Source: Mobula hypostoma
Taxonomy: Eukaryota
Length of the DNA: 64,000 nt
Direction: 5' to 3'
Assembly: GCF_963921235.1 (NCBI RefSeq)
Contig: NC_086107.1
Coordinates: 110,300,001 to 110,364,000, forward strand
Made by a program: the position numbers and the translations under genes. The notes under the pieces were generated by a model. That model did not search any database. It had not been told where the DNA came from and saw only the letters and a program-made list of their open reading frames with translations. This document shows positions 3,880 to 48,680 of the stretch, one piece after another. Position 1 is the first letter of the stretch. The number at the start of each line of letters is the position of its first letter.

Positions 3880-4855
3880 CAAAATTGTTTAAAGTACACA
3901 AGTGTAAAGGAGAGTGAAATAGTTGTTACTCCTGATTTAAAGCAGCACAATAAAAAACTAAAATAAAAAGCACAATAATAATCATCAATAAATATAAATA
4001 CATAAGGTAGTTTATGTATTTATGTGATAGCTTAGTTTGAGGATAAAGGGGAAGCCTTTTAGAACCGAGATGAGGAAAAACTTCTTCACACAAAGAGTGG
4101 TGAATCTGTGGAATTCTCTGCCACAGGAACAGTTGAGGCCAGTTCATTGGCTATATTTAAGAGGCAGTTAGATATGGCCCTTGTGGCTAAAGGGATCGGG
4201 GGTATGGAGGGAAGGCTGGTACAGGGTTCGGAGTTGGATTATCAGCCATGATTGTACTGAATGGCGGTGCAGGCTCGAAGGGCCAAATGGCCTACTCCTG
4301 CACCTATTTTCTATGTTTCTATGTTATATACATACACTGATTATATGTACATGAAGTGACGCCAGGCACAGGAGTGTCTGTACATAAGCTGACAGAAAAT
4401 GATCAAAGTAGCAACGATGGGGTGGGTTAGTGGGTGGAGGTGCTGATCAGCCTTGCTGCTTCAGCAAGGTAACTGTTGTTGAGTCTGGTAGTCCTGAAAA
4501 GCTGTGTAGCCTCTTCACAAAGACAGACAAACGGTCCATGAGCAGGGTGTGTGGGATCCTTCCATGATATTACTGGCCCTTTTCTTTATATACATCCTTG
4601 ATGGCGGGTAGTCCGGTGCCAGTGACGCGTTGGACTGTTTTGTCTACATATGGTAGAGCCTTCCTGTCTGCCACTATGCAGTTCCTGTACCATGCAGTGA
4701 AGCAGCTTGTCAGGGGGGCGTGCGCATCTGTAGAATGACGCCAGCATAGATGTGAATGGTCCAGCTCCCTTCAGCCTCCTCAGAAAGTAGAGCCATTGGT
4801 GAGCCTTCCTGCTTGTGTAGAATGCGTTATGGATCCACGAGAGGTTGTGCACTCC
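3880..4855 (-). mobile_element. Rex1/Babar-like LINE 3' fragment (tail type B), interrupted by CR1
   Basis: ORF 4586..4852 HNLSW..RKAHQWLYFLRRL..FYRC resembles the Rex1 RT C-terminus; 3' UTR matches copies at 27673-28180 and 62555-62970. Confidence 0.8.
4035..4325 (+). mobile_element. CR1 LINE 3' end nested in Rex1 3' UTR
   Basis: ttcttcacacaaagagtggtgaatctgtggaattctctgcc (FFTQRVVNLWNSLP), then gggccaaatggcctactcctgc and a (tttctatg)n tail. Confidence 0.9.
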
Positions 4856-5299
4856 CAGAACCTGAACTTGAAACTAGTAAAATTGACAAAAATTTTCCGA
4901 TACCCCTGTATTACCAAAGTCTCCACAATGCAGGCTTTATTAAGTAGGTGTTAGTTGGTTCCAGTAGAAAAGCTTGCATTTAGCACAAGCATGTTTACTG
5001 TAAGGAATGCTGTAACTACTTTAAATTGAACATCACAATTCATTCACTCATTGCTTACAAATAATTGGCTGACAAGGTAGGAAAATCCCAACTCTTAAAA
5101 TAAGAACTAGCTGCAGTAACAGAATGCCCAGTAGGATGTTTAATGTCCATACACAAAATTAATCGGAAAAAATATTTGAGATCTGAAATTTGCCTCCTCA
5201 GTGAAGTCAGCAAGTAGGATTTTTTTTAATATTTAAAAGGCAGTCCATTATCTGTACTAGGTGCTTGCACTGATTTTATTCATTTACACTCAATGAAAA

Positions 5300-13920: not shown

Positions 13921-14207
13921 AAGCATCTGTTAGTCTTGCGAGACCATGGATCTGCGCCTGGAAAGTCTTCCTGGGCAAGGTTGTATGGAAGACCGGCAGT
14001 TGCCCATGCTGCAAGTCTCCCCTCTCCATGACACCGATGTTGTCCAAGGGAAGGGCATTAGGACCCATACAGCTTGGCACCAGTGTCGTCACAGAGCACT
14101 GTGATTAAGTGCCGTGCTCAAGGACACAACACATTGCCTCAGCTGGAGCTCGAACTCATGACTTTCAGGTTGCTAGTCCAATGCCTTAACCACTTGGCCA
14201 CATACCC
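13921..14207 (-). mobile_element. tRNA-derived CORE-like SINE, copy 1
   Basis: Minus: tggccaagtggttaagg (A box), gagttcgagc (B box), gtgtccttgagcacggcacttaatc (CORE-like); near-identical to 30276-30573. Confidence 0.85.
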
Positions 14208-14477
14208 ACAGAACAATAAAGGAGCACACCATCGCCACTACCATTCTTCACATCAAGCAGCTCCTGTCCTGCAGATCCCACACAAGACTCATCAGCCATC
14301 TCAAAAGAAAAATCAGCATTCGGAAAGGAAGCAAGCTATCCTTGAAGTAATGTGCAAGATGACAATAATTCTGCTACAGAGCCCAGAATGCAAGCAATCA
14401 AACATTCTTAACTCCTCACTTATTCCCTTCTAAAGCTAAGGGAAGTTTGGCAACTTGGTGTTCCTGTTACTTTCAAA

Positions 14478-15297
14478 ACGGATGAGGTCCAGCACCTGGC
14501 CGCATGGTGTGCCAACAACAACCTGGCCCTTAACAGCCAGAAGACCAAGGAGATCATTGTGGACTTCAGGCATGCCAGGAGTCACACTCACGTCCCCATC
14601 TACATCAACGGAGCTGTAGTGGAGCATGCATCAAGCTTCAAATTCCTTGGTGTCCACATTTCTGAGGATCTCACGTGGTCCCTGAACTCCTCCATCCTGA
14701 TCAAAAAGGTGCAACAGCGCCTTTATTTCCTGTGGAGCATCAAGAAAGCTCACCTCTGTCCCAGGATACTGACGGACTTTTACCGCTGTACTATTGAGAG
14801 CATACTCACCAACTGCATCTCAGTGTGGTGTAGCAATTGTTCTGTATCAGACTGCAAAGCACTCCAGCATGTGGTGAAAACTACCCAGCAGATTATTGGC
14901 ACCCAATTGCCCACCGTTGACAACATCTGCCATAAACGCTGCCTGGGCAAGGCAAAAAGCATTATCAGGGATGCATCTCACCCTAACCATGGACTTTTTA
15001 CTCTCCTCCCATCCGGTAGGCGCTACAGGAACCTCCGCTCCCACACCAGCAGGCACAGGAAGAGCTTCTTCCCTGAGGCTGTGACCCTGCTGAACCTCAC
15101 ATCACAGTGCTAAGCAGTATTGCACCCATATTGTACTGTCTCAGTACTTTCATATTTGTGTGCTGTAGCACTTACTTTTTATTCACAGTTATTTTGTAAA
15201 TAACACTATTCTTTGCATTTCTGGTTAGATGCTAATTGCATTTCATTGGCTTTGTATCTGTACTCGGCACAATGACAATAAAGTTGAATCTAATCTA
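14478..15297 (+). mobile_element. Rex1/Babar-like LINE 3' fragment with uninterrupted RT C-terminal frame (14478-15113)
   Basis: DEVQHLAAWCANNNLALNSQKTKEIIVDFR...FKFLGVHISEDLTWS...QQRLYFL...FYRCTIESILT...LLPSGRRYR; tail aatgacaataaagttgaatctaatcta. Confidence 0.9.
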
Positions 15298-19679: not shown

Positions 19680-22415
19680 GTTTGCTATGGCTATTGGGGA
19701 GAGTTTAAACTAGTATTGCTGGGGGCGGGGGGTGGGAACTGAAGAGATGGAGGAAGGGGCGGTTGGCTCACAAATAGAGAAAGCTTGGAGACAGTCCGAC
19801 AGGGAGGATAGGCAGGTGATAGAGAAGGGATACGCTCAGACCGATGGTTTGAGATGTATCTACTTTAACGCAAGAAGCATCATGAACAAAGTGCATGAGC
19901 TTACAGCATGGATCAGTACTTGGAGCTATGACGTTGTGGCCATTACAGAGACTTGGATGGCTCAGGGGCAGGAATGGTTACTTCGAGTGCCAGGCTTTAG
20001 ATGTTTCAGAAAGGACAGTGAAGGAGACAAAAGAGGTGGGGGCGTGGCACTGCTGATCAGAGATAGTGTCACTGCTGCAGAAAAGGAGGAAGTCACGGAG
20101 GGATTGTCTATGAGTCTAAGTGGATGGAAGTCAGAAACAGGAAAGGGTCAATATCTCTACTGGGTGTTTTTTTTTAATATAGACCACCCAATAGTAACAG
20201 AGACATCGAGGAGCAGATAGGGAGACAGATTCTGAAAAGGTATAATAAGAGTCCTCGTGGTGGAAGATTTTAATTTCCTAAATATTGATTGGCATCTCCC
20301 TAGAGCAAGAGGTTTAGATGGGGTGGAGTTTGTTAGGTGTATTCAGGAAGGTTTCTTGACACAATATGTAGATAAGCCTACAAGAGGAGAAGCTGTACTT
20401 GATCTGGTATTGGGAAGTGAACCTGGTCAGGTGTCAGGTCTCTCAGTGGAAGAGCATTTTGGAGATAATGATCACAATTCTATCTCCTTTACCATAGCAT
20501 TGGAGAGGGATAGGAACAGACAAGTTAGGAAAACGGTTAATTGGAGTAAGGGGAAATATGAGGCTATCAGGCAGTAACTTGGAAGCATAAATTGGGAATA
20601 GATGTTCTCAGGGAAATGTACAACAGAAATGTGGCAAATGTTCAAGGGATATTTGAGTGGCGTTCTACATAGGTATGTTCCAATGAGACAAGGAAAGGAT
20701 GGTAGGGTACAGGAACCGTGGTGTACAAAGGCTGTTGAAAAGCTAGTAAAGTAAAGAAAAGCTTACAAAAGGTTCAAAAAAACTAGGAAGTGATAGAGAT
20801 CTAGAAGATAAGGCTAGCAGGGAAGAGCTTATGAATGAAATTAGAAGAGCCAGTATGGACTATGAGAAGGTCTTGGCAAGCAGGATTGAAGAAAACCCCA
20901 AGGCATTCTACAAGTATGTGAAGAGCAAGACGATAAGACATGAGAGAATAGGACCAATCAAGTGTGAGTGGAAAAATGTGTACGGAACTGGAGGAAATAG
21001 CAGAGGTACTGAATGAGTACTTTGCTTCAGTATTCACTACGGAAAAGGATCTTGGTGACTGTAGGGTTGAAAAGCTTTCAGTATATAGACATGAAGAAAG
21101 AGGATGTGCAGGAGCTTTTGGAAAGCATCAAGTTGGATAAGTCTTCTGGATCAGATGAGATGTACCCTAGGCTACTGTGGGAGGCAAGGGAAGAGATTGC
21201 TGAGCCTCTGGCAATGATCCTTGCATCATCAATGGGGGCAGGAGAGGTTCCGGAGGATTGGAGGGTTGCAGATGTTGTTCCCTTTTTCAAGAAAGGGAGT
21301 AGAGATAGCCCAGGAAATTATAGACCAGTGAGTCTTACTTCAGTGGTTGCTAAGTTGATGGAGAAGATCCAGAGAGGCAGGATTTATAAACATTTGGAGA
21401 GGCATAATATGATTAGGAATAGTCAGCATGGCTTTGTCAAAGGCAGGTCGTGCCTTACGAGGCTGACTGAATTTTTGAGGATGTGACTAAACACGTTGAT
21501 GAAGGTAGAGCAGTAGATGTAGTGTATATGGATTTCAGCAAGGAATTTGATAAGGTACCCCATGCAAGGCTTATTGAGAAAGTAAGGAGGTATGGGATCT
21601 AAGGGTACCTTGTTTTATGGATCCAAAATTGGCTTGCCCATAGAAGGCAGAGAGTGGTGTGCCTCAGGGATCTGTTCTGGGACCCCCTTCTCTTCGTGAT
21701 TTTTATAAATGACCTGAAAAAAGAATTGGAGGGATGGGTTAGTAAATTTGCTGATGACACAAAGGTTGGGGGTGTGGAGGGCTGTCAGAAGTTATAGCGG
21801 GACATCGATAGGATGCAAAACGGGGCTGAGAAGTGACAGATGGAGTTCAACCCAGGTAAGTGTGAGGTGGTTTATTTTGGCAGGTCAAATATGATGGCAG
21901 AAAATAGTATCAACAGTAAGACTCTTGGCAGTGTGGAGGATCGAAGGGATCTTGGGGCCCGAGTCCATAGGACACTCAAAGCTGCAGCACAGGTTGACTC
22001 AGTGGTTAAGGTGGCATACGGTGCATTGGCCTTCATCAACCGTGGGACTGAGTTTAAGAGCTGGGAGGTAATGTTACAGCTATATGGGACCTGGTCAGAC
22101 CTCACTTGGAGTACTGCACTCAGTTCTGGTCACCTCACGACAGGAAGGATGTGGAAACTATAGAAAGGGTGCAGAGGAGATTTACGAGGAGCATACCTCA
22201 TGAGAATAGTTTGAGTGAACTCGGCCTTTTCTCCTTGGAGTGGTGGAGGATGAGAGGTGACCTGATAGAGGTGTATAAGGATGATGAGAGGCATTGATCT
22301 TGTGGATAATCAAGAGGCTTTTTCCCAGGGCTGAAATGGCTAAAACGAGAGGGCACAGTTTTAAGGTGCTTGGAAGTATGTACACAGGAGACGGCAGGGG
22401 TAAGTTATTGTTGTG

Positions 22416-40640: not shown

Positions 40641-43091
40641 TAAGTGAACCAACATCAGTGCCCTCTCCCAGGCCGACATCTCCTGCATCGAGATTCTAAT
40701 CGACTCCCAAGAGCAAACCATGCAGTTCATATGTCTGACACCGGACTTGCAAAACAAATTTATCGTGAACTCCACTACAACAAAAAAAAGACTGAATCAT
40801 CTTCTCTGAGACTGTAACTAGCACAGAGATTTAAGGGAATCACAAACCTATGATAATTGAGAATGGTAAATGAGTATGGCACTGAGAATATAGTCCATTC
40901 CACAGAAATACAGAGAAGCCAAGTCTAAATGATGAAATGCACCATCTCTCCAATGATCCACTTTGAATCCCCCGCTTGTCTTATCTACAGTCCTACATTG
41001 GCTTGTCAGCCACCCAAGAACAAATGATTCTCAAATGATTCCCAGAGAAGCAAAAAAGAACACGCAAACTTGAAATATGAGCAATTATTGTTTAAAGAAA
41101 CCTCATTGGAAATATAGGAAAGATTCACTACCCCTTAGGATAAAATGATTCCCATTTTAGGTCCTATACGGCCTATCGCTAATTTGGAGACAGATTATAG
41201 AAACATCAATCTCCATCCATCCTGATAGATGTGACAATCTTTGAAAGTACTATCACAACATGGTCATTATTGCAATCTTTCTTGCTTATCTAATTTGAAT
41301 ATTGAGGAGCAGGAAAATAACTTAAGCAAAGATACTGTATTGTTTGTGAGATAATAAATCACTAACTACTACTAGTTCTACATAACAAAAACTGGAAAAC
41401 AGTTTATTGGGTTTCTGTCCAATTATCAGTGCAAGTTCCTACCATCTTCAAAACAAGAATGGATTTAAATATGTTTTTATAGGAAATATCATACAAGTGA
41501 GAATACAGATTTAGAAAAAGTGAGCAATATTAAATATTCTACAAAATTAATGATTATGTTGATTGGATTCTAGATCTCCAGATTATTAACCATTATCCAA
41601 TGCACACTTCTTAGAATATTTCTAGTCTATACCTGATCTGCTTCAAGCAGTAAGTAGCTATATATTTTGCTACACATCGCCCATGTCCAGACTGGTGCAA
41701 CATGAATCAGTCACTCAGAATATTGGAAGATCACCAGTTCAATGCGGAGGTGCAACTAATGAGCAGGATACAAACCTGATATTTAAAACAAAAGGGGTGC
41801 TGCAAATGTTTCAAATGTAAGATTAGAATACCTTCCAACATTAGTGAAGAGAAAAAAGTAAACATTGATACAACTGAAAAATAATGAAATTTACAATCAA
41901 GCATCAGCTTTCTTGAACGCTCAGCTAATATAACTAAAATACCCAGTCTTCAAAATAAGTCATACTAAACTAAATTTTCAGGTTAATGCAAAGACTATAA
42001 TTGAGCACCTGGGTTTACATTCCTTCCTGCATTATTTCCTCTGCCTCAGAAATTGTAAACATAATACTAGAAAAGTCAAAAACAGTAAAATATCATTATA
42101 TCTCGTAAATAAGAAAAACCGGACAAAGCAGTCGTTAAGGTTCAAAAAGGGAGGAGAGATATTCAATTTATTTCAATAAAGCAAAAGAAATTCAATACAA
42201 CTGCTCAAAATGATCTGTTTTATCTTATTATCACTTCAATTTGGTCCACACCAGAGCACCATAATCACAACCCTAAAACAGTGAAATAACCTCCTTCTAA
42301 TGCAAGCTTAAGACTTTAAAACTACTTATTAATGTTTTGAACAAAATCTACTGATATTTAAATAAGAAAAATAAAGGCAACACCTCACTATCAAAAGTAA
42401 ACTCAGTCTAAAATTGCCTAAACATGTCTTTTTCAGGTCACTCACTAGATCACTGCACATCTTGTAAATTCCAGGCATCTCTTTGACAGCTGGTTACATA
42501 GATTGATTGGAGAAAATGGGCAAGACAGTTTCTGCTCCTGATCACATACTATGATTATGACTGGAAAAATACAGATGTGGAATCAATATTTCCTATTTAT
42601 TAGACTGGCTCTATTTCAAGAGCAACTTTATACCTTAGGATTTTATATAACCTTGTTATATCTCTTCTGTAATCTATCCTTGAAGCTGGAGAATGCACTT
42701 TGAAGTTCCGTATCCCAATCCCTGAAAATTGTATAAAGTTGCATTAAGAATGTAGCATCCCAAGTCACCATTCCCAGCCAAATTAGTTATCTTTCAGCAG
42801 AATTAAATGACATTTGACAAATACACAAATTCTTTCCATTAAGAATTATCAACACTACTCCCTAAATATAATCCCAGTTAAATCAGCAAAAAAATAAGCA
42901 AAACACTAACATTGGGTCATAATTCAATGTGACCTAGTTGAAAAATGAAGTTGAATCTCTTGAGGGTGCTGATGCATACTTCTTATACCAGGACCAAAAT
43001 GAATCAGAATCATGTTTAATATTACTGACGCACATTGTGAAATTTGTTGTTTGTGGCTGCAGTAACTGCAATACATAATAACTACAATGTA

Positions 43092-43739
43092 TAGTCATCC
43101 CTCGGTATCCGCAGGGGATTGGTTCCAGGACCCTCAAGTCCCTTATATAAAATGGCGTAGTATTTGCGTATAATCTATGCACATCCTCCCGTATACTTTA
43201 AATCATCTCCAGATTACTTGTAATACCTAATACAATGTAAATGCTATGTAAATAGTTGTTATACTGTATTGTCTAGGGAATAATGACAAGAAAAAAAAGT
43301 CTGTACATGTTCAGTACAGACGCAACCATCGTAGCTCTTCTGGGAACGCTGATGCTGCCTCAGCATCAGCCGATGCAGATTCTCCTGTGATCTTTAAGTT
43401 CTTGAGGCTGTAGCGCCTTACATAGCTAGCCAGCCATCCCTTACTAGCCTTAAACTCCTCCCTCTCACTCACAACACGAGCAGCGAACAAACGAGACGCG
43501 AGGCAAACAATGCTCAAACAACGAGTGCTGGAGAGAGGCTGAGATCTGTGAAATGGCGGGAGGCTACAGCAGGGTATGCGTACACATCACTTCAATCGCG
43601 TGGATTCAGCGTAGTGCTCGGCATGCAGCAAATTCAAGTTTTGCTTTTTGGAACTTCCTGGAATTTTTTCTCCAATATTTTCGATCTGCAGTTGGTTGAA
43701 TCCGCAGATGCGGAACCTGCGGATACGGAGGGCTGACTG
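43092..43739 (-). mobile_element. TcMar-Tigger non-autonomous element, MER2-like, with transposase fragment
   Basis: 24-bp TIRs (tagtcatccctcggtatccgcagg vs cagtcagccctccgtatccgcagg), TA on both sides; internal FKASKGWL..Y.RRYSLKNLKITGESASADAEAASAFPEEL, a CENP-B/Tigger-type motif. Confidence 0.9.
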
Positions 43740-44878
43740 TAATTTACAGTAAGTAGATACATAAAAAAAAACTAAGTAATGCAAAAAGAGCAAAAAAGTG
43801 AGGTAGTGCTCATGGGTCCAATGTCCATTCATAAATCTGATGGCAGAGGGGAAGAAGCTGTTGCTGAATCATTGACTGTGTGTCTTCAGGCTCCTGTACC
43901 TCCTCCCTGATGGTAGCAATGTGAAGAGGGCATATCCTGGGTGATGGGGTCCTTAATGATGGATGCTGCCTTTGAGTTACTGTCAGTGTCGATTGTCAGC
44001 GATCAATTCTGGTACGCACTGGCTGAGGAAACCAACAATCCAGTTGCAGAGGGAGCTACAGAGGCCTGGGTTTTGGAGCTTGTTGATTAAAAATGAGGGC
44101 ATGATTATGTTGAATGCTGAGCTGTAATCAATAAACAGCAGTCTGACACAGGTATTCCTATTGTCTAAGTGACCCAAGGCCAAGCGGTGAGCAATTGTAT
44201 ACAATGCAGACCTATTGTGCAATAAGCAAATTACAGCAGGTCCCGGTTCTTGCTTAGACAGAACATGATTCTGGCCATAAGCAACCTCTCAAAGTACTTC
44301 ATCATAGTAGATGTGAGTGCAACTGGGCGATAGTCATCGAGGCAGCTCACCCTGTTCTTCCTGGGCACTGGTATGATTGTTGCCCTTTTGAAACAGGTGG
44401 GAACCCCTGACTGTAGCACTGAGAGTGAAGGTGTGTTTCAACACGGAAGCTGATTGGCACAGGTATTCACTGCCTTACCAGGTACACCATCAGGCCCGCC
44501 ATCTTGTGAGGGTTCACCCTCTTGAAAAATATTTTGTCTCCGAGGCAGAGATCACAGGGTCACCAAATGCTACAGGGATGTAGCTTTATTCTCCCTCCCA
44601 AGTGAACACATCTGGGAGTGAGCATCACAGACAGTCATGAGGTTAGGTTTTGCTTTGTAGGAAATAATGGCCTGAAAACCATCCCACAGCTGAGCTGCAT
44701 CTGATTCCATCCCCAACTTCGATCAAATTGTCTTGTCGCTCTTAAGGTAGCCTTCTGTGGGTTGTACCCAGACTTCTTCTATAGTTCTGGATCACCAGTC
44801 TTGAATACCACAGACCTAGCCCTCAGCAGGTTACTAATCTCCTGGTACAGCCATGGCTTTTGGTTTGGGTATATCTGG

Positions 44879-44953
44879 AAATACAAAATAATCTGCAGAT
44901 GCTGTAAAAGATCAAAGCAACACTTTCAGTACGCTGGATGAACTCAGCAGGTC
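44879..44953 (-). mobile_element. 75-bp Penelope-type tail insertion with 12-bp TSD
   Basis: TSD gggtatatctgg at 44867-44878 and 44954-44965; minus strand gacctgctgagttcatccagc...cagcatctgcag. Confidence 0.85.
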
Positions 44954-47900
44954 GGGTATATCTGGCATGTTCTTGAAGGCACACACTCATCCACACAGGT
45001 CTGGATGAAGTCCATGTCAACCGTTGCATATTCATTCAGATTTGAAGATTAATCCCTGAATATTGTCCAGTCCACCAACTCAATGCCGTCCTCTAAGTGC
45101 TCCTTCGCCTCCTGACTATACCTTCTTGGTTCTCACCACTTGTGCCGCGAGCTTTAGTCTTTGCCTATACACAGGAAGTAGAAGTACTGCCAGGTGATCG
45201 GACTTTCCGAAATATGAGAGTGGGACAGCACGGTAAGCACTCCTTGTGGTGGTATAACAGTGGTCAAGTGTGTGGCTCCTCTGGTTCCACGGGTGATACA
45301 TTGGTGGTAGTTGTTCAGAGACTTCTTCAAGCTGAACTGGTTGAAAATACCAGCAATGATAGGGAAGGCATTTGGGTGCTTTGTTTCATGATTGTTGATC
45401 ATAGTGCTCAGCTCCTCCACTCCCTGCATGACCTTGGCCTGAGGCTACCAAGATGGTGGCAGAAAACTCCCTCGGTAGATAAAATTTGACTGCTAGATGT
45501 TCCAGGTCGGGTGAGCAGGATTGAGACAGAACCACCATAATGAGTGAATCATAAAGCATACTCCAGCTTCTCTACCTTTAAAAGACTGAGATGTCCTGTT
45601 TTTGCAGGGAATAGTGAAGCCATCAGAATATCCCTGGTATGGTTTACTTAATTGAATCTGCATAAATAAACTAAGAATCATGCCAAAATAAACCTTACCA
45701 CAATCAATTTCTCAGTGAACATTATGTGTAATGCAAGAATGATGAATATATTCAATGGTTTGTATTGTTCCCCACCTGTAAACACTACTGTACCACACCG
45801 GCTAAAATAAATTTGAAATTTAAAACTTCAAAAGCATACTATTTATTCTAGTCTAATCAAATAAGTTTCCCAAGAAATGAAAAGCAAGCACGAAGTCTGA
45901 AGAAAATGTATTCCTTTTCCTCAGTTCTTAATATAACAAAATACATAAACATGCCTGTTAGCCAATTAGTGAATGCACTAAGAAAAATACATATTCCATC
46001 TTAAATTTGTCTGAAGCTTGTACAGTTTGGCAAGAAATGCAAAGTATGTAATCTTTTATAGCCAAAAGACCTGGCTAACGATGCAATTACAAAATTATTA
46101 ACAGGAAACTCAGTTCTTTTAGGACATTATTTACAAGTTTTTCAAAAAATGTTCTCCAAACAACTCGTTTCTTTTTTGAGTAAAAATAATAAAATCATTA
46201 CTGATAGCATTTTACTTGTCAGTCTATTTGGATCTATTCATTAAATCTATTCCCTTTTTCTAATCAATACAGAAACCTCGTTACTCCAGTATACCCACAC
46301 GTGAAATTCCAGTTATATTGTGCATGTGTCTGGCTCATAAGATGATAATCTAGACCTTCGTTTCACCTCTCTCTTATCGCTGGACACACAGAATACAAAA
46401 GATAAAACACAATCATTTCCCTTTGCTGTACCTTATACACACCCTGAGCAAAAATTATGAAAAATAACTGTACATGAACTATACTCAATAGACAATTTAT
46501 AGCATAAACATACGATTAGAGGTTTTCTCACAAGACCCGATTGTTCAACAATCTCCAAAGCTTCTGGAGTCGAAAAGAGAAGTTACTGGGTGATTTGGCT
46601 TGGGAAAGTCAATTGATATTTATGAAAATTAGAGCATTTTACACTCACATGGGTATAAATCAACCCTAGCAACTTTAAATCTTAATTCAAATGAGATGTT
46701 AAGTGACTAAAATCTGTGCTTATACTTATCAAGTGAGATGAGTATAAGCGAGATATTTGTTAATAAACACTCCAGCCAGAGGCAAATCAAGATGTGAAGT
46801 TCTGCCTTATGGATGACAAATGCAATTGCAAAGAATGCCATTCCAGAAAACAAGTTATTGTTAAAAATTTAGTAAAAACTACTGCAGCAGTCCAAAAATA
46901 CATCTTTAAAAAAAAGGAGCACAAATTCCTAACCCAGGATATCATACAGCCAATCATAACTAATGAAGTACTTGTATCCCACTTGACTGGTCAAAGGTGA
47001 CCTCTAGAAAATGTTACCAATTAACCAGTTTTGTGGGTTTATTTAAAATCTGATGCCAACATTGATTTTAATACTTGGAAGTGTTAACAGCTATAATATG
47101 TAATCTGCCTCTTAAGTGGATACTGGGGCTAGCTTTCAACTGTACCTGTACAAAAACCTAATTGTACATTGTCTTTTAACAATAACATTGAGTAAATGTT
47201 ACAGCTTTAGATAATATCTGACCGATGGCAAAATTATATTGTTATTATGGCATTTTAAATTGAAACATTCCATTAAAGTAAAAGCCTAAAGTAGATAACA
47301 GAAAAGTTGAAGGATCCTATATCATTAATGTTGAAAAGATAATTACATTATTTTAAATTGGTATCACTAAACCAAAGTATTATTATGTACCTGTTTTTCC
47401 AAAAATCAAAAATACTATTGATTTGAAATCAATGGTGAATAAAAATAGAAATGTAATTATTACTTTGAAATTTCACTTTGCTTATTTATTACTTTGGACG
47501 GCTATCAAAATGCCAATAAATAGGAATCAAAAACACATTTGTTGTGAAAAATGACAAAAGAAATATCCAACTTTAGCTCCTGATTAGTATTATGGAATAT
47601 TGCAGGCACTACATGTGCTTTCTGCAGTAGTTATTCAAATAATCGTGGATGGTGTCAACATGCACTGGAATATGAAATTATGAGTCAACAATGAATTATC
47701 ACTAAATGAGTACATTTACCGTACTGCCTTAGCCAAATTTCCCAGTTTCTAAATAAAACCAAATGTACTCAATGGTATTACAAATCATCCTAGAAGATTC
47801 TAAATACAAATTGACATTTTTAAAAATGGCTCTTAGTGTGTTTTGTTTTGGAATGGAGAATGAAGAAAAGGAAAACTCAATAGCACCAGAAGTTATTTTA

Positions 47901-48377: not shown

Positions 48378-48680
48378 AGAATCAAATTTATTATCACTGG
48401 CACATGGTGTGAAATTTGTTTTGCGGCAGCAGTAAACTGCATTACATAACAATAACTAAATTACAGTAAGTATATATAAAAAATTTAATTAATTAAGTAG
48501 TGCAGAAAGAAGGGAAAAGATACGAGGTAGTGTTCATGGGTTCACTGTCCATCCTAATGGAATAAGCAATCTGATGGCGCAAGGAAAGAAGCTCTTCCTG
48601 AAACGCTGAGTGTGTCTTCAAGGCTCCTGTACCACCTCTTTGATGGTAGCCATGAGAAGAGGCATATCCTGGGTGACTTT
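48378..48680 (-). mobile_element. Rex1/Babar 3' fragment (tail type C)
   Basis: Colinear with 43000-43090 joined to 43742-43950. Confidence 0.85.

Follow-up and report, generated by a model that had tools for sequence, protein, structure and literature searches.

Organization of the locus

A 64,000-bp stretch of the genome of the ray Mobula hypostoma (assembly GCF_963921235.1, contig NC_086107.1, positions 110,300,001 to 110,364,000 of the forward strand; hereafter the window, in whose numbering coordinates are given) carries a 648-bp DNA transposon copy at 43092-43739, flanked by a TA dinucleotide on each side (43090-43091 and 43740-43741) and inserted into the tail of a decayed long interspersed nuclear element (LINE). 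The copy is composed of a 5' end, 46 transposase codons and a 3' end, a layout that corresponds to two internal deletions, and it is not self-mobile. It is almost certainly a deleted Tigger element native to rays. Probably, if its presumed match to the mammalian element MER2 holds, it arose by deletion from the autonomous family that also gave rise to MER2 and that spread by horizontal transfer. The features of the locus are the following:

43006-43089, minus strand: 3' untranslated tail of the host LINE, distal part severed by the insertion (81% over 79 bp to 48378-48452)
43090-43091, no strand: left TA target-site duplication (sequence and empty-site paralogue)
43092-43115, minus strand: left terminal inverted repeat of 24 bp, the 3' end of the element in transposase orientation, its outermost base unlike that of the right repeat (21 of 24 positions paired with the right repeat)
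43116-43331, minus strand: non-coding 3' region (38% GC counted with the repeat)
43332-43469, minus strand: transposase remnant of 46 codons without stop, covering the end of the second helix-turn-helix (HTH) domain (HTH_Tnp_Tc5) and a linker, equivalent to residues 131-176 of the related protein P0008 (protein alignment, Pfam)
43470-43664, minus strand: internal non-coding region, CpG-rich (12 CpG in 195 bp), putative 5' untranslated region of the parent (composition, no blastx match)
43665-43715, minus strand: 5' subterminal region (sequence)
43716-43739, minus strand: right terminal inverted repeat of 24 bp, the 5' end of the element (sequence)
43740-43741, no strand: right TA target-site duplication (sequence)
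43742-45450, minus strand: decayed host LINE, presumably Rex1-like, with 3' tail, end of the reverse transcriptase open reading frame and reverse transcriptase remnant, upstream limit approximate (sequence, Pfam)
48378-48676, minus strand: paralogous LINE 3' end without insertion, the empty site (alignment to both flanks)

The empty site is the decisive evidence for a real insertion. Indeed, both flanks of the element match this one unbroken paralogue (81% over 79 bp and 77% over 223 bp) and, once the element and one TA are removed, 240 of the 276 columns of the alignment spanning the site are identical. The inverted repeat, taken alone, is only modestly above chance: 21 of its 24 positions pair, with mismatches at positions 1, 7 and 13, and the best 23-mer inverted match within 42500-44500 scores 21, a value reached by none of 30 base shuffles, two of which reached 20. 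The TA flanks, the length of 648 bp and the 24-bp repeats that a sequence-only reading of this DNA had described are all borne out. Neither a second copy of the element nor a further site within six mismatches of the left inverted repeat was found in the window. Relative to the empty paralogue, four extra bases are present at 43086-43089, left of the left TA; they may have been left by repair after a previous excision, or they may reflect noise in the alignment.

The insertion sits behind the open reading frame (ORF) of the host LINE, since the end of this ORF (43827-43943), which matches a reverse transcriptase ORF at 14412-15110 bearing PF09004, and a reverse transcriptase remnant (43983-44288; Pfam RVT_1, E 0.013, under the cut-off) lie on the minus strand. 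The LINE is presumably a Rex1-like element; the location in a Rex1 3' untranslated region claimed by the sequence-only reading stands as regards the LINE 3' tail behind the ORF and the empty paralogue, the name Rex1 being presumptive. A Pfam scan of the 64 other ORFs of the window recognised LINE domains only (in 5 of the 64) and no host exon, and a match to GUB_WAK_bind at 42937-43197 (E 0.0026, far under the Pfam cut-off) was dismissed as chance. The LINE paralogues within the window diverge by 13-23%, and more decayed LINE copies with reverse transcriptase, endonuclease or PF09004 matches are located at 14062-15113, 19714-21486 and 4430-4930.

The element contains 27 CpG sites, with an observed/expected ratio of 0.80 against 0.29 for the whole window and 0.26 for the host LINE, in agreement with the largely intact CpGs noticed earlier. 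None of the 96 other 648-bp tiles of the window matches this ratio (median 0.24, highest 0.67), which suggests that the element is younger than the LINE that hosts it.

Transposase remnant and full-length relatives

The 46 codons of the remnant share 42 identical residues with P0008, 41 with P0002 and 41 with P0024, a Mobula-cluster gene product. Taken alone, the remnant gives a sub-threshold match to PF03221 (E 0.0015, 18.9 bits against a cut-off of 22.2), and it is assigned to a CENP-B-type HTH region through its 41-42/46 identity to P0002 and P0008, the former bearing both PF04218 and PF03221. A Tigger transposase fragment had been announced at 43311-43517; the fragment is present, but its homology is limited to 43332-43469. 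Between the repeats no complete transposase ORF is found, and as residues 131-176 alone remain, the copy is not autonomous. The catalytic domain is deleted, and the DD32D triad is known from the relatives P0002 and P0008.

These two proteins are full-length transposases to which the coding remnant leads; the sequence-only reading had held that this copy could point to the autonomous parent of MER2. P0008 (611 amino acids, from Logan) is intact and P0002 (607 amino acids) is encoded on a JGI contig of 2,416 bp; they are 96% identical to each other and their frames are open. Their catalytic triad is D194-D308-D341, with a DD32D spacing; Tigger transposases are reported to range from DD29D to DD36D (DD29-36D; PMC7386202), which includes this spacing. 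The domain order of P0002 is PF04218/PF03221/PF03184, and the same architecture is given for P0008. The 270 bp on the 5' side of the element (43470-43739) gave no blastx match among 396 proteins and would represent the 5' end of the parent element.

Contamination or misassembly, by which mammalian DNA would have been joined into the ray assembly, is extremely improbable. The insertion is exact, TA-flanked and placed in a LINE with an empty paralogue 5 kb away, the interior of the element is 41/46 identical to the Mobula-cluster gene product, and the CpG ratio of 0.80 is at odds with old mammalian copies, which lose CpG.

A candidate GTF2I-like fusion gene in rays

In four species, RefSeq models of GTF2I/GTF2IRD2-like genes begin with residues 1-191 of the transposase: Hemitrygon akajei, Hypanus sabinus and, from the Mobula cluster, Mobula hypostoma and one further species. 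These N-termini are 83-89% identical to P0002 and P0008, and the four species have a common junction just before the GTF2I start. The GTF2I repeat of the models was confirmed, and the transposase domain is in frame with the host domain. The transposase stands at the start of 18 of the 21 listed isoforms of the four species (15 with about 190 amino acids, three with 50), the other three being devoid of it. Four ray RefSeq proteins encoded outside the window (P0003, P0018, P0005 and P0024) contain 183-191 transposase residues and both HTH domains.

Between Hemitrygon and Hypanus, identity is 99.5% in the transposase part versus 95.6% in the host part; between dasyatids and Mobula it is 84-87% in the transposase part, similar to the host part. 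Furthermore, the four ray fusion proteins cluster together in a FastTree phylogeny (support 92). A single capture prior to the dasyatid-Mobula split would be the simplest reading, and the ray GTF2I-like gene is a candidate host-transposase fusion. As the fusion models share one common junction and 83-89% identity to the full-length proteins, the transposase family is native to these rays and was present before they diverged. In PMC7614867, the ancestor of the pelagic stingrays alive today is dated to the Late Cretaceous, and this date, together with the fusion common to the four rays, suggests that the family was present in rays by the Late Cretaceous at least.

Wider relatives

The next relatives are found in the skink Tiliqua (73%), among Logan/ENA proteins, in Trichuris whipworms (66-68%), then in elephant, dugong and opossum (59-63%) and in donkey (59%). 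In the FastTree phylogeny of 52 rows, from which the window fragment was excluded as too short, the rays, P0002 and P0008, the skink and the whipworms form one clade (support 97). This grouping of rays, skink and whipworms conflicts with the host phylogeny, although paralogy among Tigger families could yield the same picture. Among 428 proteins, 18 reach at least 80% to P0008, namely P0008 itself, P0002, the window fragment and 15 ray isoforms, protein databases being such that decayed copies are missed. A profile search of 1.84 billion representative proteins gave a best match of 74%, and a search for shorter proteins a best match of 80%.

At the DNA level, a metagenome search for P0002 returned 77 loci, all of them distant relatives (at most 61% on average to P0008, many partial), in which the DNA matches of the element are confined to the coding remnant. 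None of the 77, many of which are partial, has a repeat within six mismatches of that of the element, which suggests that such ends are not generally conserved across Tiggers, in so far as distant and often partial loci can indicate this.

Several of these relatives have features of their own. Afrotherian Tigger-derived open frames (P0035, P0422, P0046 and P0425; elephants, with a KRAB domain, dugong and manatee) are about 62% identical to P0008 and may be a domesticated gene of another Tigger clade. The skink protein and two relatives (P0031, P0032 and P0006) are 73-74% identical to P0008; the second catalytic aspartate is replaced in P0031 and P0006, an N-terminal extension of 187 residues is present in P0031 and P0032, and these proteins may be a domesticated squamate copy. 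Trichuris suis and T. muris, which are parasites of mammals, bear many transposases of the sister clade (P0042, P0052, P0067 and others) at 60-69% identity.

Relation to MER2

In agreement with the sequence-only reading, both end blocks of the element, judged by eye, would be about 95% identical to the MER2 consensus, which makes the match a lead. On the same footing, the long MER2 block is assumed to correspond to the 43116-43331 region and the short one to the 43665-43715 region; close to the left end, about 28 bases would be missing in a single deletion, and the two asymmetric repeat positions (7 and 13) would be the same. The long block presumably ends one or two bases from the start of the transposase homology (43331/43332), where we also take the internal junction of MER2 to lie. 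This coincidence, if true, needs explaining, be it by a shared precursor, a deletion hot spot or a composite origin. A composite origin, in which a MER2-like miniature element later gained 334 bp of Tigger by template switching in gap repair and the remnant need not stem from the parent of MER2, is very unlikely. The presumed shared breakpoint speaks for it, as two independent deletions would rarely coincide; however, gap repair uses homologous templates, so that the donor would normally belong to the same family, and the claimed match of 239 plus 75 bases leaves 31 of the 345 MER2 bases unplaced, so that a shared breakpoint is not shown.

According to the tabulated data of PMC1914374, MER2 is 345 bp long, with 8,377 human fragments and a divergence of 18.5% (an unlabelled column, read as the median). 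These tables list it for human, chimp, rhesus, cow, rat and mouse (11/11 matches) but not for dog, its activity is placed around the time when the mammalian orders under comparison separated, and its row is without a parent subfamily entry, unlike those of Tigger1 and Tigger2 (PMC1914374). MER2, a eutherian element, is classed as Mariner/Tc1 in Repbase/RepeatMasker, and the parent-derivative pairs named in the available text of PMC5753468 exclude it.

The presumed near-identity of the end blocks aside, the ray element resembles MER2 in being TA-flanked, non-autonomous, of Tigger type and of similar inferred age (PMC5753468, PMC1914374). It departs from the definition of MER2 (345 bp, non-coding) in its 648 bp, in the 46 transposase codons and 195 bp more that it keeps on the 5' side, in its CpG richness and in its ray host. 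The element is likely kin of MER2, not MER2 itself, and there are good grounds to place both in the same family. The ages estimated for the family in mammals and in rays would overlap broadly.

Alternatively, a ray-native Tigger could have ends that resemble those of MER2 merely at clade level, the presumed near-identity being overstated and no link between mammals and rays existing. That the MER2 identity is a presumed one, that mammalian transposases top out at 63% and that related transposases are widespread in reptiles, nematodes and mammals all lend weight to this alternative, which is nevertheless unlikely: the ends are without match in the 77 loci of more distant relatives (many partial) and so are not generally conserved, six short motifs of the repeat type of the element are absent from the supplement of a survey of 383 Tigger elements, and the presumed MER2 match spans the AT-rich interior and not the ends alone.

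Proposed horizontal transfer

If the ray element and MER2 belong to the same family, horizontal transfer is very probable, provided that the presumed match holds, because the ends are non-coding and the lineages of mammals and rays split about 473 million years (My) ago (tree file of PMC7070016). An identity of about 95% cannot persist in neutral non-coding DNA over about 473 My, when the LINE paralogues of the window already differ by 13-23%. In the transfer proposed by the sequence-only reading, the part that holds is a Tigger/pogo deletion derivative native to the ray, whereas the transfer itself follows only if the presumed MER2 identity is right. Nothing points to a direct transfer from mammal to ray, and the involvement of a third host is no less likely.

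Vertical descent of the MER2 family from the jawed-vertebrate ancestor, with loss elsewhere, is highly improbable. Elasmobranch genomes presumably evolve slowly, which would favour such a history. Tigger is also reported in nearly all vertebrate classes (PMC7386202). However, the split lies about 473 My back (PMC7070016), human MER2 copies alone are about 18.5% from their own consensus, the window LINE paralogues are 13-23% apart, and the five chondrichthyan Tiggers described in PMC9219625 bear other terminal repeats.

Several points weigh against an origin of the element from the parent of MER2 and its horizontal spread. The identity of the end blocks to MER2 is a presumed one. At residues 48, 132 and 174, P0002 and P0008 depart from the four rays as well as from the skink, the window remnant siding with the rays at 132 and 174, so that P0002 and P0008 represent a sister lineage rather than the actual ray parent. 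DNA of P0002 was sought in viral contigs and in GTDB and was found in none of the 21 and none of the 190 candidate stretches, respectively, so that a full-length element of this type is only presumed to bear these same ends. The claims derive from a single copy. The element had no match among plasmids and phages, and a 22-base motif of its 3' region had none in viral contigs, GTDB genomes and paper texts, collections in which MER2 is not expected. In the phylogeny, the mammalian proteins form a separate clade with lizards (support 100), and among the 428 proteins no mammalian one reaches 80% to P0008, the mammalian relatives attaining 63% at most. The absence of a mammalian family member is expected if MER2 alone survived there, yet it lends no support.

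Under a history of horizontal transfer, a parent of probably about 2.4 kb, with a DD32D transposase of 607-611 amino acids of the P0002/P0008 type, would have been active in the lineage ancestral to stingrays and devil rays. The 5' end, the 46 codons and the 3' end would be what remained of it after two internal deletions, and a transposase acting in trans would have bound the 24-bp ends and inserted the copy at a TA in the tail of the older LINE, the order of these events being presumed. If the presumed match is right, early placental mammals would have received the same family or a very close sister; MER2, its deletion product of 345 bp, would have amplified there, and the parent would have left no recognised copy. 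The movement, which likewise hinges on the presumed match, would have been horizontal, probably Cretaceous and probably by way of other hosts. The fullest form of this history is tentative, with a chance somewhat short of even: one Tigger family would have invaded early placentals and myliobatiform rays horizontally at about the same time, leaving MER2 in mammals, deletion copies and the DNA-binding region of a GTF2I-like gene in rays, and an intact DD32D transposase (P0002/P0008) in a living host.

Comparison with known systems and significance

The element shows the features of pogo/Tigger elements, namely a TA duplication and short inverted repeats (8-33 bp in PMC9219625; here 24 bp, 21 of them paired), with a CENP-B-type double HTH region and DD32D in the full-length relatives (PMC7386202, PMC9219625). 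It differs from the family at large in lacking the catalytic domain, and its repeat motifs are absent from the 383-element survey, which includes no myliobatiform. A warning that Tigger names are polyphyletic is given in PMC7325037. The relation of Tigger7 to MER44A-D (PMC5753468), deletion products mobilised in trans by the transposase of their parent, is a close likeness; for MER2, no parent is named in the part of that paper at hand, and here the candidate parent comes from outside mammals.

Tigger transfers between Eutheria and Chondrichthyes have been claimed on coding distances of 0.65-0.70 between mongoose and two sharks (PMC9219625). These concern the same kind of event and the same host groups, but in the portion available they involve other terminal repeats and no MER2, whereas the present claim concerns a presumed high identity in non-coding DNA. 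Transfers detected in mammals or birds are rare: a wider survey lists 24 such events against at least 975 inferred overall, with only two chondrichthyans in its tree (PMC7070016), and the main text of PMC10162687 contains no match to Tigger or MER2. As for host-transposase fusions such as GTF2IRD2 and SETMAR (bioRxiv 10.1101/2020.05.07.082677), the ray GTF2I-like models resemble them in holding a transposase DNA-binding region in frame; the fusion survey began from tetrapod annotations, though its supplements may list fusions in fish, and the candidate ray fusion lies outside the window.

A literature search over titles and the beginnings of abstracts, with Dfam, Repbase Reports and subscription papers outside its scope, gave no report that connects MER2 with rays, with a transfer event or with a parental element, and none of a Tigger-GTF2I fusion. 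Tigger horizontal transfer is already known as a kind of event; neither a named parent of MER2 nor the ray fusion gene came up in this search, and the parent of MER2 may already stand in Repbase or Dfam under another name.

In summary, the human genome contains about 8,400 MER2 fragments, for which the portions of the sources consulted name no parent, and a relative with coding sequence identifies the transposase by which MER2 was likely spread. If the proposed history is true, the enzyme responsible for thousands of MER2 copies in the human genome can be named. A well-dated case between mammals and rays would lengthen the short list of transfers in which mammals or birds took part, and with the candidate ray fusion gene, cartilaginous fishes would join the groups in which transposases have been captured.

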